Part shown: positions 9,929 through 50,577 of the stretch, piece after piece
Layout of the letters: every line of letters starts with the position of its first letter
Numbering within the stretch: position 1 is the stretch's first letter
The notes under the pieces: model-generated
Databases searched by the model: none
The model's input: only the letters and a program-made list of their open reading frames with translations
What the model was told of the DNA's origin: nothing
Position numbers and translations under genes: made by a program
Assembly (NCBI GenBank): GCA_041389445.1
Contig: JAWKRW010000002.1
Span: forward strand, 501,359-565,358
Direction: 5' to 3'
Length of the DNA: 64,000 nt
Source of the DNA: Myxococcota bacterium
GTDB taxonomy: Bacteria; Myxococcota_A; UBA9160; UBA4427

Positions 9929-10828
9929 ATGCCCAGTCCCGAACACGAGTCCCTCGTCGCCGCCCTGCTCGCGAGCGACTCGGGCCCCCCGCCGACCGAC
10001 GTCCATGCGATGCGCGCCGCGATGGCCAGTCTCGCCGGCGCCTTCGCGTCGACGCCGACCCCTGCGGACGTGAAGATCGACCCCGTCGACGCGGACGGCG
10101 TCCCGGCGTTCTGGTTCGTGCCTCCGGACGCCCGGGACGATCGGGCGATCCTCTACCTCCACGGCGGCGGCTACGTGATGGGCTCCGTCTCGACCCATCG
10201 ATCCCTGATCGCGCGGCTCGCGCGCGCGACCGGATGGCGCTGCCTCGCGCTCGACTACCGACTCGCGCCCGAGCATCCCTTCCCCGCGGCGATCGACGAT
10301 GTGATGGCCGCGCACCGTTGGCTGCAGCGGCGGGGCATCCCGCCCGCACGGATCGTCTTCGCGGGCGATTCGGCGGGCGGCGGTCTCGTCCTGGGCAGCC
10401 TCGTCGCTTTGCGCGATGCCGGCGAGGCGTTGCCGGCGGCCGCGATCGCGCTCTCGCCCCTCGCGGATCTCGAGCTGACCGGCGACTCGGTCGCGCGCGT
10501 GACGGACGATCCGCTGGTTCCGGTCGATGGGACCCGCCTGATGGCCGCGGCCTATCTCGGCGCTGGTGCCGATCCGCGGGATCCCCGGGCCTCGCCGATC
10601 CATGCCGACTATCGGGGCCTTCCGCCGCTCCTGCTCGAGGTCGGCACGCGCGAGGTCCTGCTCGACGACGCGCGGCGCGTCGCCGATCGCGCGCGCGCCG
10701 CCGGAATTCCGGTCGAGCTCTTCGTCGGCGAGGGACTGACCCACGTCTGGCCGCTCCATCCCCAGCTGCCCGAGGCGGCGGAATCCATCGAGCGGATGGC
10801 GCGCTTCGTCGCCCGACACGTCGGTTAG
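9929..10828 (+). CDS. Alpha/beta hydrolase, hormone-sensitive-lipase-like esterase family
   Basis: Motifs are an HGGGY oxyanion motif (LYLHGGGYVMG), a GDSAGG nucleophile elbow, and conserved Asp and His (LTHVW) downstream. I prefer the ATG at 9929 over the TTG at 9905. Confidence 0.9.
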   Translation: MPSPEHESLVAALLASDSGPPPTDVHAMRAAMASLAGAFASTPTPADVKIDPVDADGVPAFWFVPPDARDDRAILYLHGGGYVMGSVSTHRSLIARLARATGWRCLALDYRLAPEHPFPAAIDDVMAAHRWLQRRGIPPARIVFAGDSAGGGLVLGSLVALRDAGEALPAAAIALSPLADLELTGDSVARVTDDPLVPVDGTRLMAAAYLGAGADPRDPRASPIHADYRGLPPLLLEVGTREVLLDDARRVADRARAAGIPVELFVGEGLTHVWPLHPQLPEAAESIERMARFVARHVG

Positions 10829-15503: not shown

Positions 15504-16385
15504 ATGACGCAACGCATCCGGATCCAGCCCCTCTCGAGCGTCCTCGGCGCACGCGTCGACGGACTCTCGCTCGCCGAGCCGCTCTCGGACGAGACGATGG
15601 CCGCCCTGCACGCCGCGGCGCTCGAGCATCTCGTGCTCGTCTTTCCCGACCAGGCGCTCGACGCCGAGCAGCAACGCCGCTTCGCATCGCGCCTCGGCCG
15701 CCCCGAGCCGCACCCCGTGACGCGTCATCTCGGCGGCGATGCGACGATCGTCCGGATCGACAACGAGCTGATCGCCCCGCCCGACCTCACGGCGCCTCCC
15801 CACCTCGATCATCTCGCGGCCCATGGCGCCTGGCATACCGACTACACGTTCCATCGCGAGATCCCGACCTTCGCGACCCTGCGCGCCGAGATCGTCCCCG
15901 ACGTCGGCGGCGACACGCTCTGGGCGAGTACCGTCGCGGCCTGGGACGCGCTCTCGCCGCGCATGCAGGCCTTCCTCGCGGACGTCCGAGCCATCCATTG
16001 GCATGGGCCCCATTTCGCGCGCAACTTCGGCATCGAGAGGCAGGGCCCCGACGCCGTTCGACGCTTCGAGGCGGCCTTCCCGCCCGTCGAGCATCCGGTC
16101 GTGATCCGTCATCCCGAGACGGGGCGGCGCGCGCTCTTCGTCAACCCGTCCTACACGGCGCGCCTGGTCGGATTCGAAGCGGCGGAGAGCGAAGCGCTGC
16201 TCGCATTCCTGTTCCGCCACGTGACCCAGCCGCGCTTCCACCTTCGCCACCACTGGTCACCGAACGATCTCGTCGTCTGGGACGAGCGCGCGACGATCCA
16301 TCTCGCACCGACCGACTTCCATCCCCACCGTCGACGCTTGATCCGCGTCGCGGTCGGCAGCGAGGCACCACGCCCCACGAGCTGA
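15504..16385 (+). CDS. TauD/TfdA-family Fe(II)/2-oxoglutarate dioxygenase
   Basis: Diagnostic strings are WHTDYTF (the HxD part of the facial triad), DTLWAST, a distal His region and WDERATIH. Confidence 0.9.
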   Translation: MTQRIRIQPLSSVLGARVDGLSLAEPLSDETMAALHAAALEHLVLVFPDQALDAEQQRRFASRLGRPEPHPVTRHLGGDATIVRIDNELIAPPDLTAPPHLDHLAAHGAWHTDYTFHREIPTFATLRAEIVPDVGGDTLWASTVAAWDALSPRMQAFLADVRAIHWHGPHFARNFGIERQGPDAVRRFEAAFPPVEHPVVIRHPETGRRALFVNPSYTARLVGFEAAESEALLAFLFRHVTQPRFHLRHHWSPNDLVVWDERATIHLAPTDFHPHRRRLIRVAVGSEAPRPTS

Positions 16386-22023: not shown

Positions 22024-22782
22024 ATGGCGGACGAGACGGATGCCTACACGGCGGCCTTGATCGAGCTCCACGCCCCGCTCGAACGCCAGGGCCCCGGAGA
22101 CGTCGCGCACGCGCGCCGCATCCTCGAGGCGCTCGCGCCCAGGCTCCCCGCGGTGCCCCGCGTCGCGGATCTCGGTTGCGGCGCGGGCGCGGGCGCGCTC
22201 CTGCTCGCGGGCTTCTTCGGGTGCACCATCCGCGCGGTCGACGCCTCCGCCGCGTTCGTCGAGCGACTGAAGGCACGGGCCCGTGCGGCCGGACTGGACC
22301 GTCTCGTCGACGCGACGGTGGAAGACATGGGGCGTCTCGCCTGGCCGGCTGCGTCGCTCGATCTGCTCTGGTCCGAAGCGGCCGCCTACTGCCTGGGCTT
22401 CGAGCAGGCGCTCGCGCTCTGGCATCCACTGCTCGTCCCCGGCGGCTTCGCCGTCGTCTCGGAGCTCAGCTGGTTCAGCGAGTCGCCTCCCGCGCCGGCG
22501 CGCGACGTCTGGAAGGCGGCCTATCCCGCGATGGGCAGCGAGCCCGAGAACCGCGAGCGCGCGGTCCGCGCGGGCTACTCGGTCTTCCGGACCGAGCGCC
22601 TGTCGAGCGAAGCCTGGTGGACGAGCTACTACGGACCGCTCCGGGCACGGCTCGACGCCCTGCGAGACCGGAACGATCCGGCGATGCGCCACGTCGTCCG
22701 CGAGACGGAGCAGGAGATCGCGCTCTTCGAGCGCTTCCACGCGCACTACGGCTACACGTTCTACGTGCTCGAGCGCGTCTGA
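22024..22782 (+). CDS. Class I SAM-dependent methyltransferase
   Basis: VADLGCGAGAGALLLA is motif I, and LDLLWSEAAAY follows. ATG at 22024. Confidence 0.85.
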   Translation: MADETDAYTAALIELHAPLERQGPGDVAHARRILEALAPRLPAVPRVADLGCGAGAGALLLAGFFGCTIRAVDASAAFVERLKARARAAGLDRLVDATVEDMGRLAWPAASLDLLWSEAAAYCLGFEQALALWHPLLVPGGFAVVSELSWFSESPPAPARDVWKAAYPAMGSEPENRERAVRAGYSVFRTERLSSEAWWTSYYGPLRARLDALRDRNDPAMRHVVRETEQEIALFERFHAHYGYTFYVLERV

Positions 22783-23201
22783 CCCATCGCCGAGACGTCC
22801 TGCCGATCGAGCTCGGGGATCGTCGCGAGTCGCGGGACCCAGGGCAGCCGCGAGCGGCACCACGCCTGGACGACCGGCTCGAGCGCCGCCTTCTGGCGCA
22901 CCGTCCCGCCCGAGATCGAGACGGGATGGGCTCCACCCGCGCTGACCGCACCGTAGAGCTGCGTCCCGCAGGTTCCGCAGAAGTGCATCGTCCGCCGCGC
23001 TCCGCTCTCGGCCGTCTTCTCGTAGGTCCGCGTCGTGCCACGCGTGATCCGGAAGCGATCGGCGGGGGCGAGGATCCGGGTCCGGAAGGGCGCGCCCGAG
23101 AAGACCTGACAGTCCTCGCAGTGGCAGAGGAAGACCTGGTCCGGCTCGACCTCGGCTTCGTACGCGATGGCCCCGCAATGACACCGACCGTCGATCCGCA
23201 C
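22761..23201 (-). CDS. GFA (glutathione-dependent formaldehyde-activating / CENP-V) family zinc protein
   Basis: The Cys pattern GRCHCGAIAY...LCHCEDCQ...HFCGTCG is diagnostic. GTG start with a GAGGAGGG Shine-Dalgarno. Confidence 0.85.
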   Translation of the reverse strand: MRIDGRCHCGAIAYEAEVEPDQVFLCHCEDCQVFSGAPFRTRILAPADRFRITRGTTRTYEKTAESGARRTMHFCGTCGTQLYGAVSAGGAHPVSISGGTVRQKAALEPVVQAWCRSRLPWVPRLATIPELDRQDVSAMGQTRSST

Positions 23202-23228
23202 GGCCGCCCTCCTCGTCCTCGACGGTCC

Positions 23229-23519
23229 TCAATCGTGGGCGAGCGACTTCTCCGTGAAGAGATAGTCCTTGAGCTCCTTGGAGAAGGCGGGATCCCGCCT
23301 TCGGATCCATTCGAGCACCATCGCCGCGTGCTCCTTCTCCTCGTCGCGATTGTGCTCGAGGATCGCCTTCAGCTCCGGGTCGCCACAGGCGTCGGCGCGC
23401 TGCTGGTACCAGTCGACCGCCTCGAGCTCCTCGATCAGCGAGACGATCGCGCGATGCATGTCGAGCGTCTTCGGACTCAGCTTCTCGGCGGGCTCGTGCA
23501 GTCCTTCGTGAGCGGCCAT
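23229..23519 (-). CDS. Encapsulated-ferritin-like (EncFtn/Flp) protein, 96 aa, without a recognisable targeting peptide
   Basis: An AGGAGGTG Shine-Dalgarno is present. MHRAIVSLIEELEAVDWYQQRADACGDPELKAILEHNRDEEKEHAAMVLEWIRRRDP carries the E...ExxH di-iron ligand pattern of EncFtn. It is about 60 percent identical by eye to 46667..47155. It ends ...DYLFTEKSLAHD. Confidence 0.85.
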   Translation of the reverse strand: MAAHEGLHEPAEKLSPKTLDMHRAIVSLIEELEAVDWYQQRADACGDPELKAILEHNRDEEKEHAAMVLEWIRRRDPAFSKELKDYLFTEKSLAHD

Positions 23520-23606
23520 GCGGGTCACACCTCCTGAATGATCGAGCCGGCGGGGCCGATCCGAGCATGCCATAGTCGACGGCAGGCGACACGTCGGAGG
23601 ATCGCG

Positions 23607-24530
23607 ATGCAGGGGATTTCCATCCGCGAGCTGGACGCCCCCCTCGGCGCCGAGATCGACGGGCTCGATCCGACGACGCTGCGTGCGCTCGACGCGGAGG
23701 GGCTCGAGTCGATTCGCAGCGCGCTGCACCGTCATCGACTGCTCCTGATCCGGGGGACGCCCCGCGCCGACGCGGACCTCGTCCGCTTCGCCGAGCGCTT
23801 CGGTCGACTCGTGACGCTCTACGATCACGAGACGACCGTTCCCGGCTTTCCCGCGATCGTCCGCGTCAGCAACATCGAGACGGATGGGCGACCGATCGGG
23901 CTCGCCGGGTCGCAGCCGCTCCCCTGGCACCACGACCATTCCTACCTGCCCTGCCCCGCCCGCGAGAGCTTCCTCGAGGCGAGCCTGCTCCCGAACGATC
24001 CGCCGAGGACGGTGTTCGCCGACATGGCGATGGGGCTCGCGGCGCTGCCCGCGAAGCTGCGCGAGCGGATTCGAGGCCTGCGCGCCGTACACCACATCGA
24101 CGAGCGACCCGACGCCGTCGGCGACGCCCGCCGGCCGACCGGCACGACGCCCGACTACGCGGACGCGACGAACGTCCTCGCCCAGGACCGCATCGCGTCC
24201 CAGCGCGCGATCCATCCCGTCGTCGTGCGCCATCCGGAGAGCGGCGTCGAGGCGCTCTACGTCAGTCCGCTCGCGACCCACTCGATCGTCGGAATGCCCG
24301 CACCCGAGGCGCACGCGCTCCTCGACGAGCTCTTCGAGCGCGCCATCCGACCCGATCACATGTACGCCCACGCCTGGTCGCCCGGCGATCTCGTCGTCTG
24401 GGATACGGTCGCCACGCTCCACCGACGGGACGGCTTCGACCCGGCAGCGCGACGTCTCATGAAACAGATGTCGACCGCCTGCGCCGAGCCGCTCGCGTCG
24501 ACCGAGCCGACCCGCGCGCAACGAAGGTGA
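23607..24530 (+). CDS. TauD/TfdA-family Fe(II)/2-oxoglutarate dioxygenase (second paralog)
   Basis: A GGAGGA Shine-Dalgarno precedes the ATG at 23607. Diagnostic strings are PWHHDHSY (HxD), HPVVVRHPESG and WDTVATLHRR. Confidence 0.9.
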   Translation: MQGISIRELDAPLGAEIDGLDPTTLRALDAEGLESIRSALHRHRLLLIRGTPRADADLVRFAERFGRLVTLYDHETTVPGFPAIVRVSNIETDGRPIGLAGSQPLPWHHDHSYLPCPARESFLEASLLPNDPPRTVFADMAMGLAALPAKLRERIRGLRAVHHIDERPDAVGDARRPTGTTPDYADATNVLAQDRIASQRAIHPVVVRHPESGVEALYVSPLATHSIVGMPAPEAHALLDELFERAIRPDHMYAHAWSPGDLVVWDTVATLHRRDGFDPAARRLMKQMSTACAEPLASTEPTRAQRR

Positions 24531-38084: not shown

Positions 38085-39572
<1,488 letters not shown>

Positions 39573-39654
39573 CCCCGACCGCCTCCGGGCGCGGCTTCGC
39601 ACGCGGAGCGCGGTCCAGCGGCGTCAGCGCCGGCCGACCGCGCCGCCACACGAC

Positions 39655-39720
39655 CTCGATCATCCATAGTCCATGTCAATGATTCCAATCTGAACATTCC
39701 ATTTTACGGATACATCTCCC
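39655..39720. promoter_or_regulatory. Isolated AT-rich island upstream of the Prx-Grx gene (candidate promoter / OxyR operator region)
   Basis: The sequence is tcgatcatccatagtccatgtcaatgattccaatctgaacattccattttacggatacatc. It is the only strongly AT-rich stretch for several kb, lies about 130 nt upstream of the ATG at 39846, contains an ATAG element, and has oxyR two genes downstream. Confidence 0.3.
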
Positions 39721-39845
39721 GACCCGATCCTCCCGGCATCGCGGACGCGAGGAGCGCTGCGCCGATCCGGCACGGCGCTCGCGGCGACGCAGCGCAGGGC
39801 CGTGCCGCCGAGCTCGAATCGACCGCGATGACGAAGGAGGAATCC

Positions 39846-40595
39846 ATGGAGACGGCAAGACGGGGAACGATCGAGGTGGGCGCGCCGATCCCGAGTGCGC
39901 AGGTGAGCGTGCAGACGGAGGAGGGCTGGCAGTCGGTCGACGCCCGGACGCTCTTCGCGGGAAGGGACGCGGTCCTGTTCGCCCTTCCCGGCGCCTTCAC
40001 GCCGACCTGCTCCTCGAGCCACCTGCCGGGCTACGAAGAGCTCGCGCCGGCCTTCGAGGCCGCGGGCATCGACGCGATCTACTGCCTCTCGGTCAACGAC
40101 CCCTTCGTGATGGAGGCCTGGGGCCGCCAGCAGCGGGTCGAACGCGTGAAGCTCGTGGCCGACGGCAACGCGGCGCTGACCCGCGCGCTCGGCATGGACG
40201 TGTCGAAGGAGGATCTCTGCTTCGGCGTCCGCTCGTGGCGCTATGCGATGATCGTGCGCGACGGCGTCGTCGCGGCGCTCTTCGTCGAGCCGGACGTGCC
40301 GGGCGATCCCTTCGAGGTCTCCGACGCGGAGACGGTGCTGCGCAGCCTCGTGCCGGATGCGAAGCTCGCGCCGCCGGTCACGATCTTCACGCGGCCGGGC
40401 TGCCCGCATTGTCGCCGGGCGAAGGCGCTGCTCGACGAACGCGGCTACGCCTACGACGAGATCACGATCGGCCGCGAGGCGACCTCGCGGACGCTGGCGG
40501 CGGTCGCCGGGGCGACGACGGTGCCGCAGGTCTTCATCGGCGGGCGGCGCGTCGGTGGAGCGGACGCGCTCGAGGCGGAGCTCGGGGCGCGCTGA
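39846..40595 (+). CDS. Hybrid peroxiredoxin (Prx5-type) - glutaredoxin fusion protein
   Basis: An AAGGAGG Shine-Dalgarno lies 5 nt before the ATG at 39846. The Prx5 peroxidatic motif is LPGAFTPTCSSSHLPGY. The C-terminal Grx domain has a CPHC active site (TRPGCPHCRRAK) and TVPQVFIGG. Confidence 0.9.
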   Translation: METARRGTIEVGAPIPSAQVSVQTEEGWQSVDARTLFAGRDAVLFALPGAFTPTCSSSHLPGYEELAPAFEAAGIDAIYCLSVNDPFVMEAWGRQQRVERVKLVADGNAALTRALGMDVSKEDLCFGVRSWRYAMIVRDGVVAALFVEPDVPGDPFEVSDAETVLRSLVPDAKLAPPVTIFTRPGCPHCRRAKALLDERGYAYDEITIGREATSRTLAAVAGATTVPQVFIGGRRVGGADALEAELGAR

Positions 40596-40644
40596 GGTCG
40601 GGGCGCCAGGCGGCGCGAAGTGGAGCGTCGAGCGGAGGGATGCC

Positions 40645-41595
40645 ATGGAGTCGACCCTGCGGATACCGGCCGAGCCGGGCTTCACCCTGACCGAGCTGCG
40701 TTATGCGGTCGCGGTCGGGGAGACCCTCCACTTCGGGCGGGCGGCGGCTGCGTGCCACGTCAGCCAGCCGACGCTATCGGCCGGCCTCCGGAAGCTCGAG
40801 GAGACGCTCGGCGTCCAGCTCTTCGAGCGCTCGAGCAAGCAGGTCCGCGCGACGCAGGAGGGCGGGCTGCTGCTCGTGCGCGCGCGGGCGGTGCTCGAGG
40901 AGGCGCTGCGGCTCGTCGACCAGGCGGCGGGGGCGCTCGATCCGCTCGCGGGACCGCTTCGCATCGGAGTGATCCCGACACTCGCGCCCTACATGCTGCC
41001 CTGGCTGATTCCCGCCCTCGCGAAGCGTCTGCCCGCGCTCGAGCCGATCGTTCAGGAGGGCATGACGCATCGGATCCTCGACCAGCTCCGCGAGCACGCG
41101 CTCGACGCGATCGTGCTCGCGCGGCCCTTCGAGGAGAGCGGGCTCGTCGTGCATCCGCTCTTCCACGAGCCCTTCTTCCTGCTCTGTCCCGCGGACCATG
41201 CGCTCGCCCGGCGCAAGCGCGTCACGCAATCCGCGCTCGAGGGCGAGCGCGTCCTGCTCCTGACCGAGGGCCATTGCCTGCGGGACCAGGCGCTCGAGAT
41301 CTGCCGAACGACCCGCGCGCGCGGCCCGGCGCCCGAGGGCGACTACCGGGCGACCAGCCTCGAGACGATCCGCCAGATGGTGATCGCCGGCCTCGGCCTG
41401 ACGCTGATGCCCGCGATGGCCCTGACCGAAGCGGACCGGCGCCGCAAGACGACCGCCGTCCGCCCCTTCGCGGCGCCCGTCCCCGGTCGCGAGATCGTCC
41501 TCGCCCATCGGCGCGGGAGCCCGCGCGCGGAGGGATTCGTGCGGCTGGCACGGCTGGTCCGAAGGGAGCTGCCGGAGTCGGTGGAGCCGGTCTGA
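40645..41595 (+). CDS. oxyR: Hydrogen-peroxide-sensing LysR-type regulator OxyR
   Basis: A LysR HTH is present (LRYAVAVGETLHFGRAAAACHVSQPTLSAGLRKLEE). The OxyR redox-Cys region is LLTEGHCLRDQALEIC (spacing equivalent to C199/C208). Its genomic context is next to a peroxiredoxin. Confidence 0.85.
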   Translation: MESTLRIPAEPGFTLTELRYAVAVGETLHFGRAAAACHVSQPTLSAGLRKLEETLGVQLFERSSKQVRATQEGGLLLVRARAVLEEALRLVDQAAGALDPLAGPLRIGVIPTLAPYMLPWLIPALAKRLPALEPIVQEGMTHRILDQLREHALDAIVLARPFEESGLVVHPLFHEPFFLLCPADHALARRKRVTQSALEGERVLLLTEGHCLRDQALEICRTTRARGPAPEGDYRATSLETIRQMVIAGLGLTLMPAMALTEADRRRKTTAVRPFAAPVPGREIVLAHRRGSPRAEGFVRLARLVRRELPESVEPV

Positions 41596-46666: not shown

Positions 46667-47155
46667 ATGACGCGATCGGCGCTCCACGAGGCGGCGGAGG
46701 ACCTGCGCGACGAAACGCGCGAGATGCATCGAGCGATCGTCTCGTTGATCGAAGAGCTCGAAGCCATCGACTGGTATGCGCAACGCATCGACGCCACGAG
46801 GGATCCCTCGCTCCGCGACGTCCTCGCCCACAGTCTCGGCGAGGAGAAGGAGCACGCGAGCATGACCCTCGAATGGATCCGACGACGCGATCCCGAGTTC
46901 GACGCCCTGCTGCGCCGCCTCTTGTTTCAGGCGGACGGCTCGATCGTCCACGCCGAGGCGGACGCGCCGGATGCAGGCACACGCGCCGGGCGCGGGTCGG
47001 TCCCGGGCGCTTCGTCGACGACGACCGGCGATCGGGGACTCGGCATCGGGAGCCTGCGCGCGAACAACGAGGCGGGAGGCGGAGCGGACATGGCGGGGGA
47101 CACGGCCCGGAGCGATCCGGGCGGAAGCGAGCGGCAAAAGGAGGGTTCGGAGTGA
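46667..47155 (+). CDS. Encapsulated ferritin (EncFtn) cargo protein with extended C-terminus (162 aa)
   Basis: A GGGAGGA Shine-Dalgarno is present. The ferritin-like core is MHRAIVSLIEELEAIDWYAQRIDATRDPSLRDVLAHSLGEEKEHASMTLEWIRRRDP. An encapsulin targeting-peptide-like motif, GDRGLGIGSLR, is encoded at 47030-47059. The stop overlaps the shell gene's start (GTGA). Confidence 0.9.
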   Translation: MTRSALHEAAEDLRDETREMHRAIVSLIEELEAIDWYAQRIDATRDPSLRDVLAHSLGEEKEHASMTLEWIRRRDPEFDALLRRLLFQADGSIVHAEADAPDAGTRAGRGSVPGASSTTTGDRGLGIGSLRANNEAGGGADMAGDTARSDPGGSERQKEGSE

Positions 47156-47961
47156 GCGTGTGGAACCGGAGGCTCGCGCCGCTGAGCGATGCGGCCTGGA
47201 AGCGGATCGACGACGAGGCGCGCAGCGTGCTCGTGGTCCACCTCGCGGCGCGGCGTTTGTTCGACTTCGACGGACCCCACGGCTGGGCGTTCTCGGCGAT
47301 CGACCTCGGCTTCGTCGAGCCGCTCGAAACGAGCGAGGACGGCGCCTGGCTGCGCCGCCGCCAGGTCCGGCCGCTGGTCGAGCTGCGCGTGGAGTTCGAG
47401 CTCGAGCGCGAGGAGCTCGAGAACGTCGATCGCGGTGCCGGCGACGTCGACCTCGATCCGCTGCGCGACGCGGCGCGGCGCTTCGCGAGCATCGAGGACA
47501 CGGCCCTCTTCGAAGGCCATGCCGATTCGGGGATCCCCGGCCTCGTCACGGACGCGGCCAACGAAGGCGTCGCGCTCCCCGAGGATCCGCTGCGCTTCCC
47601 GAACGCCGTGACCGAGGCGATCGTGCAGCTGCGCGAGGCGGGCGTCTCGGGTCCGTACGTCGCCGCCCTCGGGCTGAGGGAGCACGCCGCGCTCGATCGG
47701 ACCACGACCCCGGCGGGCTTTCCGGTCCTGCGCCACGTCCAGCGCCTGCTCGACCTCCCGATCATCTGGGCGCCGGCGCTCCGGGGCGGAGTCGTCGCGA
47801 GCGCGCGCGGCGGCGACTTCCGGCTCGTCTGCGGTCGCGACGCGACGATCGGCTATCGGACCCACGACGATCGCAGCGTGAAGCTCTACCTCGAGGAGAG
47901 CTTCAGCGCCGAGCTGACCGGGCCCGAAGCCGTGGTCCCGCTGCTGCCCGCGATCTCCTAG
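47152..47961 (+). CDS. Family 1 encapsulin shell protein (linocin M18-like, HK97 fold), 269 aa
   Basis: An AAAGGAGGG Shine-Dalgarno lies 7 nt before the GTG at 47152. The N-terminus (V)SVWNRRLAPLSDAAWKRIDDEA matches the conserved encapsulin N-terminus. RQVRPLVELRVEF, DTALFEG, GPYVAALG and FRLVCGRDATIGY are characteristic of the family. Confidence 0.9.
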   Translation: MSVWNRRLAPLSDAAWKRIDDEARSVLVVHLAARRLFDFDGPHGWAFSAIDLGFVEPLETSEDGAWLRRRQVRPLVELRVEFELEREELENVDRGAGDVDLDPLRDAARRFASIEDTALFEGHADSGIPGLVTDAANEGVALPEDPLRFPNAVTEAIVQLREAGVSGPYVAALGLREHAALDRTTTPAGFPVLRHVQRLLDLPIIWAPALRGGVVASARGGDFRLVCGRDATIGYRTHDDRSVKLYLEESFSAELTGPEAVVPLLPAIS

Positions 47962-49151
47962 AGGGCGCGCGCGCGCCGCAGCGCCCCGATCTCGTCCCAG
48001 TCGAGTCCGAGCTCGAGCAGGACCTCCTCGGTATGCTGCCCGAGCTCGGGCGCGAACCGGCCCGGACGTGCCGGCGTGTCGCTGAATCGGATCGGGCAGC
48101 CGATCGTCGTCATCGGCCCGAGATCGGGATCCTCGAAGCGCTGCAGATAACCGTTCTCGAACACGCCCTCGTCCGCCAGGACCTCGAGATAGTCGCGCAC
48201 GGGCGCGCAACGCACGTCGACGTCGCGGAGACGCTTCATCCAGTCTGCCGTGCTGCGCGTTCGGGACGCCTCGGCGAGCGCGTCGAAGAGCGCGTGGCGC
48301 ACCTCGGGCGGATGGTAGGCCGAGGCGAAGCGCGGATCCCGAAGCAGCTCCGGCCGTCCGATCGTCTCGAAGAACGCCTCCCGCTGCTCGGGCACGACGC
48401 CGATGATGCCGACGTGTCCGTCGGCGGTCGGGAGGATCCCGTAGAGGCCGTGGATCAGGGGATGACCGCGATCGGTCTCGCCCGGCTCGCGGCCGGTCAG
48501 CAGGGTGTAGGTGTACTCGGAGGCCTGCGCGAAGATCACGGCGCCGATCAGCGAGACGTCGACGCGCTGCCCGCGACCCGTCCGATCCCGCGAATAGAGC
48601 GCCGCGAGGATGCCGCTCACCATGTTCTGCGAGGCGAGATGATCGGCGATCGTCGCACCGACGGGACGCAGATCGCTCGGTCCGGTCCGCCGGATCAGAC
48701 CGCCGGCCGCCTGCCCGGCGAGGTCGGCGCCGCGTTGCGCCGCGTCGGGACCGACCGGGCCGAAGGTGCTCCCGGTCGCGAAGACGAGACGCGGGTTGAG
48801 ACGCGCGAGCACGTCGTAGCCGAGCCCCCATGCCTCGAGCGTTCCGGGCACGAAGTTCGAGAGCAAGACGTCGGCTCCTTCGACGAGTCGGAGGAAGACC
48901 GCGCGCCCCGCCTCGACGCGCAGGTCGAGGGTGATGCCGCGCTTGCCGCGATTGCAGGCGATGAAGAAGGGCGAGCGCAGGTCGTCGGGCGAGAGCACCG
49001 TCCAGCGACCGAGGTCGCCCCGCTCCGGCAGCTCGATCTTGATCACGTCGGCGCCGAGATCCGCGAGGAGCTGCGCCGCCTGCGGCCCCTGCACGATCTG
49101 CCCGAGATCGAGCACGCGCAGCCCGTCGAGCGCCCCCCGACCTTCCGCCAT
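47958..49151 (-). CDS. Family III CoA-transferase (CaiB/BaiF type)
   Basis: A GGAGGGGGGA Shine-Dalgarno is present. Diagnostic strings are LDGLRVLDLGQIVQGPQAAQLLADLGADVIKIE, LLSNFVPG and a catalytic Asp region (VGATIADH). Confidence 0.9.
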   Translation of the reverse strand: MAEGRGALDGLRVLDLGQIVQGPQAAQLLADLGADVIKIELPERGDLGRWTVLSPDDLRSPFFIACNRGKRGITLDLRVEAGRAVFLRLVEGADVLLSNFVPGTLEAWGLGYDVLARLNPRLVFATGSTFGPVGPDAAQRGADLAGQAAGGLIRRTGPSDLRPVGATIADHLASQNMVSGILAALYSRDRTGRGQRVDVSLIGAVIFAQASEYTYTLLTGREPGETDRGHPLIHGLYGILPTADGHVGIIGVVPEQREAFFETIGRPELLRDPRFASAYHPPEVRHALFDALAEASRTRSTADWMKRLRDVDVRCAPVRDYLEVLADEGVFENGYLQRFEDPDLGPMTTIGCPIRFSDTPARPGRFAPELGQHTEEVLLELGLDWDEIGALRRARAL

Positions 49152-49216
49152 CGTCCCCCCTCCGACGGGCCGCGCGTCGGCCCGCCCCGCGATCCCCCGT
49201 CGGGCGCGCGCCTCGA

Positions 49217-50041
49217 TCAGCCGCGCGCGACCGACGCGCGATGGCGGCTGCCGGGCCGAGGCGGATCCTCGGGCGGCCCCGCGAAGCATTGCGCGATCGA
49301 CAACCAACGCCGCGCGTTCTCGCCGACGACCCGCAGCCCCGTGTCTTCCCAGGCCCGGGTCTGCGCGACCACCTGGCAAAACTCCGTCGCGCTTCCTTCG
49401 ATGCGATCGGACTCGACCTCGGCGTTCCACTCCCAGCGCGCACCGGACGGCGCCTCGAGCAGGACGTGCGGCGCCGTCTCCGGAACCTCGAGCCCTCGAT
49501 TGCGAAACGTCCAGGCGAAGGTATTCACGCCCAGTACGGCGACGTTGCGGATGCGATCCGCGTCGACGCGGTCCGCGCCGAGCCGGTCGAAGACCGCCTG
49601 GCCATGGGCCCAGGTCTCCATCAGCCGCGCCGAGATGCTCGAGCGGGCGCTCATGTCCGGTCCGCCCCAGGCCACCCGCATCCGCGGATCGACGGCTTCG
49701 AACGCCTGCGCGATCGCGTCGCAGTCGCTGCGCCACTGATCGAGCAGCGCCCGACCGCGCAGCGGACCCAGATAGTCGAGCGTCACCTCGCGCAGGCTGC
49801 GCCCGCCTTCTCGCGCGCGTCGCAGGTCCGCGAAGAAGGTCCGCAGGCTCGACGCGTCGCGGAGCGACATCCCGGCGGCGAGATTGAAGAGGTGGAGATG
49901 CGCGAGCACGTCCTCGATCGTCCAGCCCTTGAACTGCGTCACGAGCAGGAGATCGGACTCCGGACGCGAGGCCAGGAGCGCATGGAGCGTCTCGCTCTCC
50001 TCGAGAAACGCGCGCGGCTGGGAGAAGGGCTCGGGCGGCAT
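49217..50041 (-). CDS. DinB/MDMPI-superfamily protein (maleylpyruvate-isomerase N-terminal-domain, TIGR03084-like)
   Basis: Diagnostic strings are WTIEDVLAHLHLFN and METWAHGQAVFDRLG. ATG at 50041. An alternative TTG at 50077 would overlap the upstream stop as TTGA. Confidence 0.7.
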   Translation of the reverse strand: MPPEPFSQPRAFLEESETLHALLASRPESDLLLVTQFKGWTIEDVLAHLHLFNLAAGMSLRDASSLRTFFADLRRAREGGRSLREVTLDYLGPLRGRALLDQWRSDCDAIAQAFEAVDPRMRVAWGGPDMSARSSISARLMETWAHGQAVFDRLGADRVDADRIRNVAVLGVNTFAWTFRNRGLEVPETAPHVLLEAPSGARWEWNAEVESDRIEGSATEFCQVVAQTRAWEDTGLRVVGENARRWLSIAQCFAGPPEDPPRPGSRHRASVARG

Positions 50042-50073
50042 CGGCGGAATTCGTCGTCCGGGGACGCTCGTGC

Positions 50074-50577
50074 TCAACGCGCTCGGCGCGCGCCGACGTC
50101 CTCCGAGGGCTCACGGTAGTCGGGAAAGTGGCGGCGCGGAAGACGGCTCTCGTCGAATTCGGCGACCGCGCGCAGGACGTCCCGGCGCGAGACCTGCCCG
50201 ACGAGCCGCCCGCCCTCGAGCACGGGCAGGCGCCGCACGCCGTGGGTCAGGAAGAACTGCGCGAGGGCGTAGATGTCCTGGTGGGGCTCGGCCGCGTGGA
50301 ACACGGTCGTCATGTAGTGGGCGACGACGCCTTCACTGCCGTGGTCGTCGGCGTAGAACGCGCCGGTACTCAAGACCCGCAGACAATCGAACTCCGAGCA
50401 GATGCCGACGAGGCATCCGTCCTCGTCGAGGACGGGCGCCCCTGAGATCTCGTGCTTCAACAGGAGTCGCGCCGCATCGAGAATCGGCATCGCCGGCGTC
50501 AGCACGACGAGCGCGCGGGTCATGATGTCGGAAGCGGTCGGAACCGCGGGCGCAGGGTACGGCTTGGTCGAGGCCAT
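50074..50577 (-). CDS. CBS-domain pair protein
   Basis: A GGAGGTG Shine-Dalgarno is present. Two CBS modules are visible (DIMTRALVVLTPAMPILDAARLLLKHEISGAPVLDEDGCLVGICSEFD and ...FFLTHGVRRLPVLEGGRLVGQVSRRDVL). Confidence 0.85.
   Translation of the reverse strand: MASTKPYPAPAVPTASDIMTRALVVLTPAMPILDAARLLLKHEISGAPVLDEDGCLVGICSEFDCLRVLSTGAFYADDHGSEGVVAHYMTTVFHAAEPHQDIYALAQFFLTHGVRRLPVLEGGRLVGQVSRRDVLRAVAEFDESRLPRRHFPDYREPSEDVGARRAR

Follow-up and report, generated by a model that had tools for sequence, protein, structure and literature searches.

A tag-less EncFtn of the s-FLP class encoded on the same contig as a tagged EncFtn-encapsulin operon

A 2024 review divided the encapsulated ferritin-like proteins into four classes, FLP-TP, fusion-FLP, IMEF and s-FLP (Biomolecules 2024;14:624, PMC11202242), and raised the question of whether s-FLPs are encapsulated at all (PMC11202242). 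The short class has a structural representative in NE0167 of Nitrosomonas europaea (PDB 3K6C), a protein of 95 amino acids whose unpublished apo structure contains ten chains and is described as a decamer (PMC11202242). This entry served as the molecular-replacement model with which the first EncFtn structure was solved. In R. rubrum EncFtn, the ferroxidase centre consists of Glu32, Glu62, His65 and Tyr39 (PMC5012862), and it is flanked by an entry metal site (Glu31/Glu34) and an outer metal site (His57/Glu61/Glu64; PMC5012862). The C-termini of the EncFtn ring sit on its outer circumference, as does the outer metal site (PMC5012862). R. rubrum EncFtn, when truncated so that it lacks the tag, forms an active decameric ferroxidase that binds only about 48 Fe, with excess iron precipitating, and storage needs the shell (PMC5012862). 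Our literature search on orphan or stand-alone EncFtn found nothing relevant.

Here we analysed a 64-kb stretch of DNA (the window) from a Myxococcota metagenome-assembled genome. An earlier note on this DNA had described a 96-amino-acid open reading frame with a strong Shine-Dalgarno sequence, and both its coordinates and its sequence were found to be correct. The gene occupies 23229..23519 on the minus strand, with its ATG at 23519 and its stop codon at 23229-23231. It encodes MAAHEGLHEPAEKLSPKTLDMHRAIVSLIEELEAVDWYQQRADACGDPELKAILEHNRDEEKEHAAMVLEWIRRRDPAFSKELKDYLFTEKSLAHD, an EncFtn-like protein that has neither linker nor targeting peptide and ends in LFTEKSLAHD. The Shine-Dalgarno sequence GGAGGTG, read off the sequence, lies at 23528..23534 (minus strand), 8 nt before the ATG. 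An upstream-extended frame of 430 amino acids can be regarded as a high-GC artefact, because homologs share the N-terminus of the 96-residue protein. The gene has a GC content of 63.6% compared to 71.4% for the window, while its GC3 of 0.88 is like that of nearby genes; because this value is normal for genes in this genome, the low GC is attributed to amino-acid composition. Horizontal transfer of the gene was considered and rejected, as the GC3 is ordinary for the genome and plasmid matches were just seven and weak.

The short gene is separated by an 87-nt divergent intergenic region (23520..23606) from a TauD/TfdA-family Fe(II)/2-oxoglutarate dioxygenase gene (23607..24530, plus strand; Pfam PF02668, E=3e-53). 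A scan of this intergenic region for a sigma-70-like promoter, a Fur box or a terminator detected none. On the other side lies a GFA-family gene (22761..23201, minus strand; Pfam match to PF04828), on the same strand as the short gene, with a GTG start 27 nt past its stop codon and its own Shine-Dalgarno sequence, GAGGAGGG. The two genes are probably co-transcribed, in a pairing that is peculiar to this genome. Farther neighbours in the window encode a methyltransferase, a nitrilase-type hydrolase, an EthD protein, an amidohydrolase and a secreted beta-helix protein. The divergent TauD gene and the adjacent GFA gene had both been pointed out before, and their positions are as described. The arrangement does not recur: among 85 other loci of related short genes, a TauD homolog was found near none, and GFA occurred in four and was adjacent in none. 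For want of such conservation the TauD/GFA pairing says little about function, and it was dropped as a clue.

The product is a member of the EncFtn family, with scores of 149 bits against Pfam EncFtn-like PF22277 (E=3e-44; cutoff 27) and 135 bits against NCBIfam TIGR04535 (cutoff 125). Together with 61% identity over 90 amino acids to the tagged EncFtn of the same contig, this agrees with the earlier proposal that the two share the ferritin-like core. The closest solved structure is 3K6C, which aligns end to end with 72% identity (E=3e-41). The AlphaFold2 model (pLDDT 91.8) places helices at residues 16-44, 48-75 and 77-88, with a coil of eight residues at the end, and so adopts the EncFtn fold of two long antiparallel helices and a short third helix. 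Foldseek TM scores of 0.80-0.85 were obtained against 3K6C, 5N5F (H. ochraceum EncFtn) and 5DA5 (R. rubrum EncFtn). In the alignment, R. rubrum residues E32, E62, H65 and Y39 correspond to E31, E61, H64 and Y38 of the short protein, the entry site E31/E34 to E30/E33, and the outer site H57/E61/E64 to H56/E60/E63. None of the ferroxidase and accessory metal-site columns varies in an alignment of 42 sequences that spans the short and tagged classes. With these columns invariant and all ligands kept, the catalytic machinery is intact.

The protein search matched at least 8,000 clusters, tagged EncFtns among them, and its top hits belonged to the short class without exception. Of the best 120 homologs, almost all are 95-99 amino acids long, apart from two longer gene calls, and 112 have 95-96 residues. 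They are 81-100% identical to the query, except for one 112-residue call with an internal duplication (66%), and nearly all carry the C-terminal signature LFTxK[PS][LI]AHx. Relatives of the tagged copy are 111-162 amino acids long and 51-79% identical, and all but one of the 45 whose C-termini were read contain a motif of the ..LGIGSLR.. type. On average, sequences of the short class are 83% identical to one another, as against 67% both within the tagged class and between the two classes. The window protein itself is only 61% identical to the tagged copy of its own genome, compared to 74-84% for s-FLPs of Beta- and Gammaproteobacteria.

A neighbour-joining tree was built from core residues 7-88 only (about 82 columns) of 100 short and 129 tagged sequences. 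One side of a split in this tree held 99 of the 100 short sequences, the window protein and 3K6C, and none of the 129 tagged sequences. Bootstrap support for this split is just moderate, owing to the short alignment, and strict reciprocal monophyly of the two classes failed on a 75-sequence subsample (6/200 bootstraps). This phylogeny of both copies therefore places the window protein with the short class and 3K6C, apart from the tagged class of the operon copy. The term paralog used in the earlier note is thus apt in a deep sense, but not as a description of a tail-less derivative of the operon copy. Judged by its sequence, the product of 23229..23519 is a member of the s-FLP class, whose structure was solved in 2009 and whose name dates from the 2024 review, and is not a new protein type. 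The same alignments and tree indicate that its subfamily is distinct, highly conserved and found very widely, and that the protein does not stem from a recent loss of the tail of the operon copy. NE0167 is the closest described counterpart (95 compared to 96 residues, LFTNKPIAHE compared to LFTEKSLAHD, the same fold and the same group in the tree). While NE0167 comes from a betaproteobacterium, the window s-FLP comes from a myxococcotal genome with a tagged EncFtn and an encapsulin on the contig.

We propose, with a probability of roughly 0.65, that the window s-FLP is a cytosolic di-iron enzyme that consumes Fe(II) and/or peroxide and works independently of the encapsulin shell. By analogy with 3K6C and truncated R. 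rubrum EncFtn, it would assemble as a ring-shaped decamer, a pentamer of dimers, and this cytosolic ring would use O2 or H2O2 to oxidise Fe(II). Because such a ring would have no cavity, its product could not be stored, which suggests a soluble role in iron or peroxide detoxification. The s-FLP gene and the EncFtn-encapsulin operon 23 kb away would then represent two different systems residing in one genome and not one split system. The nearest tested functional analogue is EncFtn-sH, the truncated form of R. rubrum EncFtn (He et al. 2016, PMC5012862), which is likewise a tag-less core. EncFtn-sH is an artificial construct, whereas the window s-FLP belongs to a natural, separately evolving lineage with a conserved C-terminal AHx.

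The C-terminus of the window s-FLP was compared to those of tagged homologs. The protein ends three residues past the point at which the tagged homologs begin their linker, and the earlier reading that it has neither linker nor GSL-type motif is borne out by this alignment. The disordered linker of about 10-40 residues found in tagged EncFtns is not present. A search of the protein for GSL-type, SLGIGSLK or LxVGSL-type motifs found none, while almost every top-ranking tagged homolog examined has one; the cryptic targeting motif that could have overturned the tag-less reading was likewise not found in the sequence. H. ochraceum EncFtn (5N5F, 7OE2) and R. rubrum EncFtn (5DA5), to which the window s-FLP is 64-66% identical over structurally aligned residues, share with it the metal ligands and the YLFT..PI end of the core. 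Unlike them, it lacks the 10-40-residue linker, the SLGIGSLK-type tag and the operon with a shell gene.

The last residues are nevertheless conserved in the short class. The penultimate histidine is present in 113/115 and 75/80 short sequences, depending on the set, and alanine at position -3 in about 85-90%. Position -5 is serine in the window s-FLP, where proline is the commoner residue (serine in 20/115 relatives), and the exact ending LFTEKSLAHD recurs in 4 of the best 120 relatives. The near-invariant histidine and the alanine at -3 imply that the short C-terminus is under selection. One explanation, raised in the review, is that this C-terminus serves as a short targeting peptide of a non-canonical kind and binds to the inside of the encapsulin; the review lists LFTD(E/N)KPIAHE as a 'putative, uncharacterised' tag of s-FLP (PMC11202242). 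The strong conservation of the last ten residues fits this idea, as does the link of just 8 residues between fusion-type EncFtns and the shell (PMC11202242). However, YLFT..[PS][IL] is common to both classes, and in tagged EncFtns it closes the folded core before the linker (H. ochraceum YLFTERPILELEEEDT..., R. rubrum YLFTEGPITAIEA...), so that the part peculiar to the short class shrinks to its three terminal residues, A-H-x. In addition, 90-92 of the 95 residues are ordered in the 3K6C model, so that almost no stretch remains that could serve as a flexible peptide, and the ending bears no likeness to the SLGIGSLK consensus. The neighbourhoods of 80 other s-FLP genes, described below, also contain no shell gene within 10 kb. 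Taken together, these data make a cryptic tag highly improbable. A metal-related role for the penultimate histidine is a matter of speculation.

The tagged EncFtn of the contig is encoded at 46667..47155 (plus strand). This protein of 162 amino acids belongs to the FLP-TP class (PF22277, E=4e-35), and its best PDB match is H. ochraceum EncFtn, with an alignment that runs through the localisation sequence. The targeting-peptide motif GLGIGSLR occupies residues 124-131 (47036..47059, plus strand) and is followed by 31 more residues. A family 1 encapsulin shell gene (47152..47961, plus strand; Linocin_M18, E=5e-80; NF041155, 272 bits) comes next, its GTG start overlapping the stop of the EncFtn gene. 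The starts of the two EncFtn genes are 23.1 kb apart, in line with the 23 kb reported before, and their neighbourhoods are unrelated. A second shell gene, the other finding that could have changed the picture, was not found in the 64-kb window: both tblastn and a profile built from 120 encapsulins, run against the six-frame translation, matched just 47152..47961, and no shell gene turned up among 33 other predicted genes of the window that were compared to Pfam. The explicit shell models represent family 1 only, with shells of families 2-4 covered indirectly by the Pfam scans of neighbours.

The presence of both genes in one genome raises the alternative that s-FLP subunits mix with tagged EncFtn in a single decamer and are carried into the shell by their partners. 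Both genes look intact and translatable, the residues of the ferroxidase interface are identical in the two window proteins, helix 1 is identical at 22/29 positions, and EncFtn decamers build up from dimers in an iron-dependent manner. Against such mixing, helix 3, which forms part of the larger non-ferroxidase interface, is identical at just 5/12 positions. The window s-FLP also resembles s-FLPs of other genomes far more closely than it does the tagged copy of its own, the two genes lie 23 kb apart in unrelated surroundings, and the class is common without a tagged copy or a shell gene nearby, as at the 80 loci described below. We consider co-loading of this kind very unlikely. If it did occur, it would provide a loading route without a targeting peptide on the loaded protein, and the cell could adjust how many tags each ring bears, how much cargo is loaded or which catalytic subunits the cargo contains.

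GTDB was scanned with a single genome for each species, which recovered at least 587 loci with relatives; the best 80, all s-FLP, were analysed. Most of these belong to Beta- and Gammaproteobacteria, and some to Alphaproteobacteria, Nitrospirales and Thermoanaerobaculia. At none of these 80 best loci (1.2 Mb searched by tblastn and HMM) was an encapsulin or second EncFtn gene found within 10 kb of s-FLP. Conservation of neighbours was assessed by BLAST clustering of open reading frames of at least 80 amino acids within ±6 kb of the gene at the 80 loci, and by a Pfam census of 150 immediate neighbours. The neighbours proved to vary widely from locus to locus. The census revealed no Linocin_M18 domain among these 150 neighbours, and it identified 137 Pfam families, none of which occurred in more than 8/150. 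The closest relatives of the window s-FLP, 95% and 89% identical and encoded on GC-rich contigs, lie in unrelated contexts. A Fur-box scan of 79 regions upstream of s-FLP genes gave no excess over shuffled controls, and a k-mer search for a shared upstream motif found the ribosome-binding site alone.

One recurrent arrangement was observed at 7 of the 80 loci, where the s-FLP gene lies between genes for RFO (a CCG-domain Fe-S oxidoreductase) and DUF3501, downstream of an aerobic-type rubrerythrin gene. All are on one strand at these loci, with spacings of 26-33 nt upstream and 19-85 nt downstream. The 89%-identical relative also has a DUF3501 gene, 63 nt upstream. A gene for a metallo-beta-lactamase-fold protein adjoins s-FLP about as often as the rubrerythrin-cluster context occurs, and both recurrences are weak. 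The aerobic-type rubrerythrin-RFO-DUF3501 cluster is a proposed oxidative-stress and peroxide-defence module (Cardenas et al. 2016, PMC5114695). Its rubrerythrin shares di-iron, ferritin-superfamily chemistry with s-FLP, but is a four-helix bundle, whereas s-FLP is a two-helix subunit with a di-iron site formed across the dimer.

The rubrerythrin-cluster context suggests, for some organisms, a different mechanism, in which a dedicated Fe-S or other redox partner re-reduces the di-iron site so that H2O2 is removed in a rubrerythrin-like manner and the protein is a partner-dependent peroxidase, not an O2-driven ferroxidase. The tight packing of s-FLP between RFO and DUF3501 genes and the DUF3501 gene beside the 89%-identical relative, within a proposed peroxide-defence module, are what this mechanism would lead one to expect. 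However, the context occurs at only about 9% of loci, and a search of the 64-kb window for rubrerythrin, RFO and DUF3501 genes found none of the three. On balance this mechanism is unlikely for the window s-FLP. It competes with the shell-independent enzyme on mechanism alone and is compatible with shell independence.

The earlier note had also allowed for a decoy, and a related view is that the gene is a decayed, truncated relic that once encoded a cargo and no longer has a function of its own. The s-FLP is indeed shorter than the operon copy and has no adjacent shell gene. This view is barely credible given the intact frame, the strong Shine-Dalgarno sequence, the GC3 of 0.88 and the retention of all catalytic residues, and a decoy role finds no support. 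Moreover, length is fixed at 95-96 residues and identity averages 83% in a class that extends across several phyla, and a full-length member of that class has a solved structure in 3K6C.

Among the three roles first proposed for the tag-less protein, the sequence comparisons suggest that a free ferroxidase fits best. In vitro, a free ferroxidase without a store yields insoluble Fe(III) (PMC5012862), an observation that counts against the shell-independent reading. The lack of an adjacent shell gene does not by itself prove independence, because the M. xanthus EncC and EncD proteins are encoded away from the shell gene, yet are tagged. These ferritin-like or accessory cargos resemble the window s-FLP in their distance from the shell gene and differ from it in carrying a tag. 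Archaeal non-targeted Flp proteins, which occur beside Flp-fusion encapsulins (Giessen & Silver 2017; 10.1101/085266), are like the window s-FLP in being tag-less in a genome with an encapsulin. They are encoded close to the shell operon, whereas the s-FLP class is bacterial and not shell-adjacent.

The s-FLP class itself was already described, and the novelty of this locus lies in the contig that it shares with a tagged EncFtn-encapsulin operon. With an s-FLP and a canonical operon on one contig, the genome offers a natural system well suited to asking whether s-FLPs ever enter a shell. Comparative data argue against encapsulation, and the absence of shell genes around the 80 s-FLP loci, together with the minority located in rubrerythrin/RFO/DUF3501 clusters, points toward a cytosolic oxidative-stress function. 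EncFtn is said to need a shell for iron storage, yet a tag-less form ranks among the small ferritin-like proteins that are most conserved and most abundant in environmental bacteria.

At a minority of loci, short, tag-less EncFtn-like proteins (s-FLPs) are encoded within a recurring oxidative-stress gene cluster. In 7/80 GTDB genomes (loci L009, L011, L021, L027, L043, L056 and L059; s-FLP at ~10001-10282 in most), the s-FLP gene was found tightly packed and in the same direction between the genes for RFO, a CCG-domain Fe-S oxidoreductase, and DUF3501, with an aerobic-type rubrerythrin gene upstream of this arrangement. At the locus of a close relative of the window s-FLP (L084, 9321-10291), a DUF3501 gene lies 63 nt upstream. 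No mention of a link between s-FLPs and the rubrerythrin peroxide-defence cluster was found in the literature examined. Of the 150 ORFs immediately flanking s-FLP genes, 8 were metallo-beta-lactamase-fold genes, the commonest type of neighbour (for example L068, 10312-11064, with similar genes at other loci). Judged by sequence, some of these resemble persulfide dioxygenases, a type of mononuclear Fe(II) enzyme. This association is weak and may be explained by chance.

In the window itself, 27 nt separate the s-FLP stop codon from the GTG at which the GFA-family gene begins on the same strand (22761-23519), and no terminator pattern was found within this gap. The spacing and the lack of such a pattern suggest that the two genes form a two-gene transcript specific to this genome. 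While the overall GC content of the s-FLP gene (23229-23519) is 63.6%, compared to 71.4% for the window, its third-position GC of 0.88 is like that of neighbouring genes. Recent transfer was rejected as the source of the low GC, and the dip is an effect of the Glu/Lys/Leu-rich protein encoded. A second TauD/TfdA-family dioxygenase gene (15504-16385), located 7 kb from the TauD gene paired with the s-FLP gene, adjoins genes for a luciferase-like monooxygenase, a nitronate monooxygenase and an AMP-ligase.

The last four s-FLP codons, including the stop, occupy 23229-23240. Histidine was observed at the penultimate position in 113 of 115 metagenomic and 75 of 80 genomic sequences, alanine at position -3 is nearly as constant, and the final residue is variable (D/E/K/G). 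A C-terminal A-H-x is thus a conserved feature across the s-FLP class.

In the operon-encoded EncFtn the targeting motif GLGIGSLR is not C-terminal, being followed by 31 Gly/Ala/acidic-rich residues (47036-47155). Because its relatives are also extended past the motif, by 19-23 residues in close and 2-19 in more distant sequences, an annotation error was rejected and the extension is regarded as a lineage trait. The EncFtn-encapsulin operon is flanked by CoA-transferase family III and CBS-domain genes (47958-50577), and the same two gene types flank the operon of the nearest NCBI relative, GCA_964457385.1 (L086, 3489-9515), whose encapsulin is 71% identical; the surroundings of the operon are thus partially syntenic. 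Approximately 5-8 kb upstream of the operon in the window, genes encoding the protein adenylyltransferase SelO, a fusion of peroxiredoxin with glutaredoxin, and a regulator of the LysR type (38085-41595) may constitute a redox-stress neighbourhood.

The NCBIfam model TIGR04535, named 'encapsulin-associated ferritin-like protein' (cutoff 125 bits), was passed by the orphan short s-FLP (135 bits) but failed by the encapsulin-associated operon copy (46667-47155; 115.6 bits), and s-FLPs elsewhere carry the label 'encapsulin-associated' although no shell gene is nearby. The opposite outcomes for the orphan and the operon copy indicate that automatic names in the EncFtn family are misleading.
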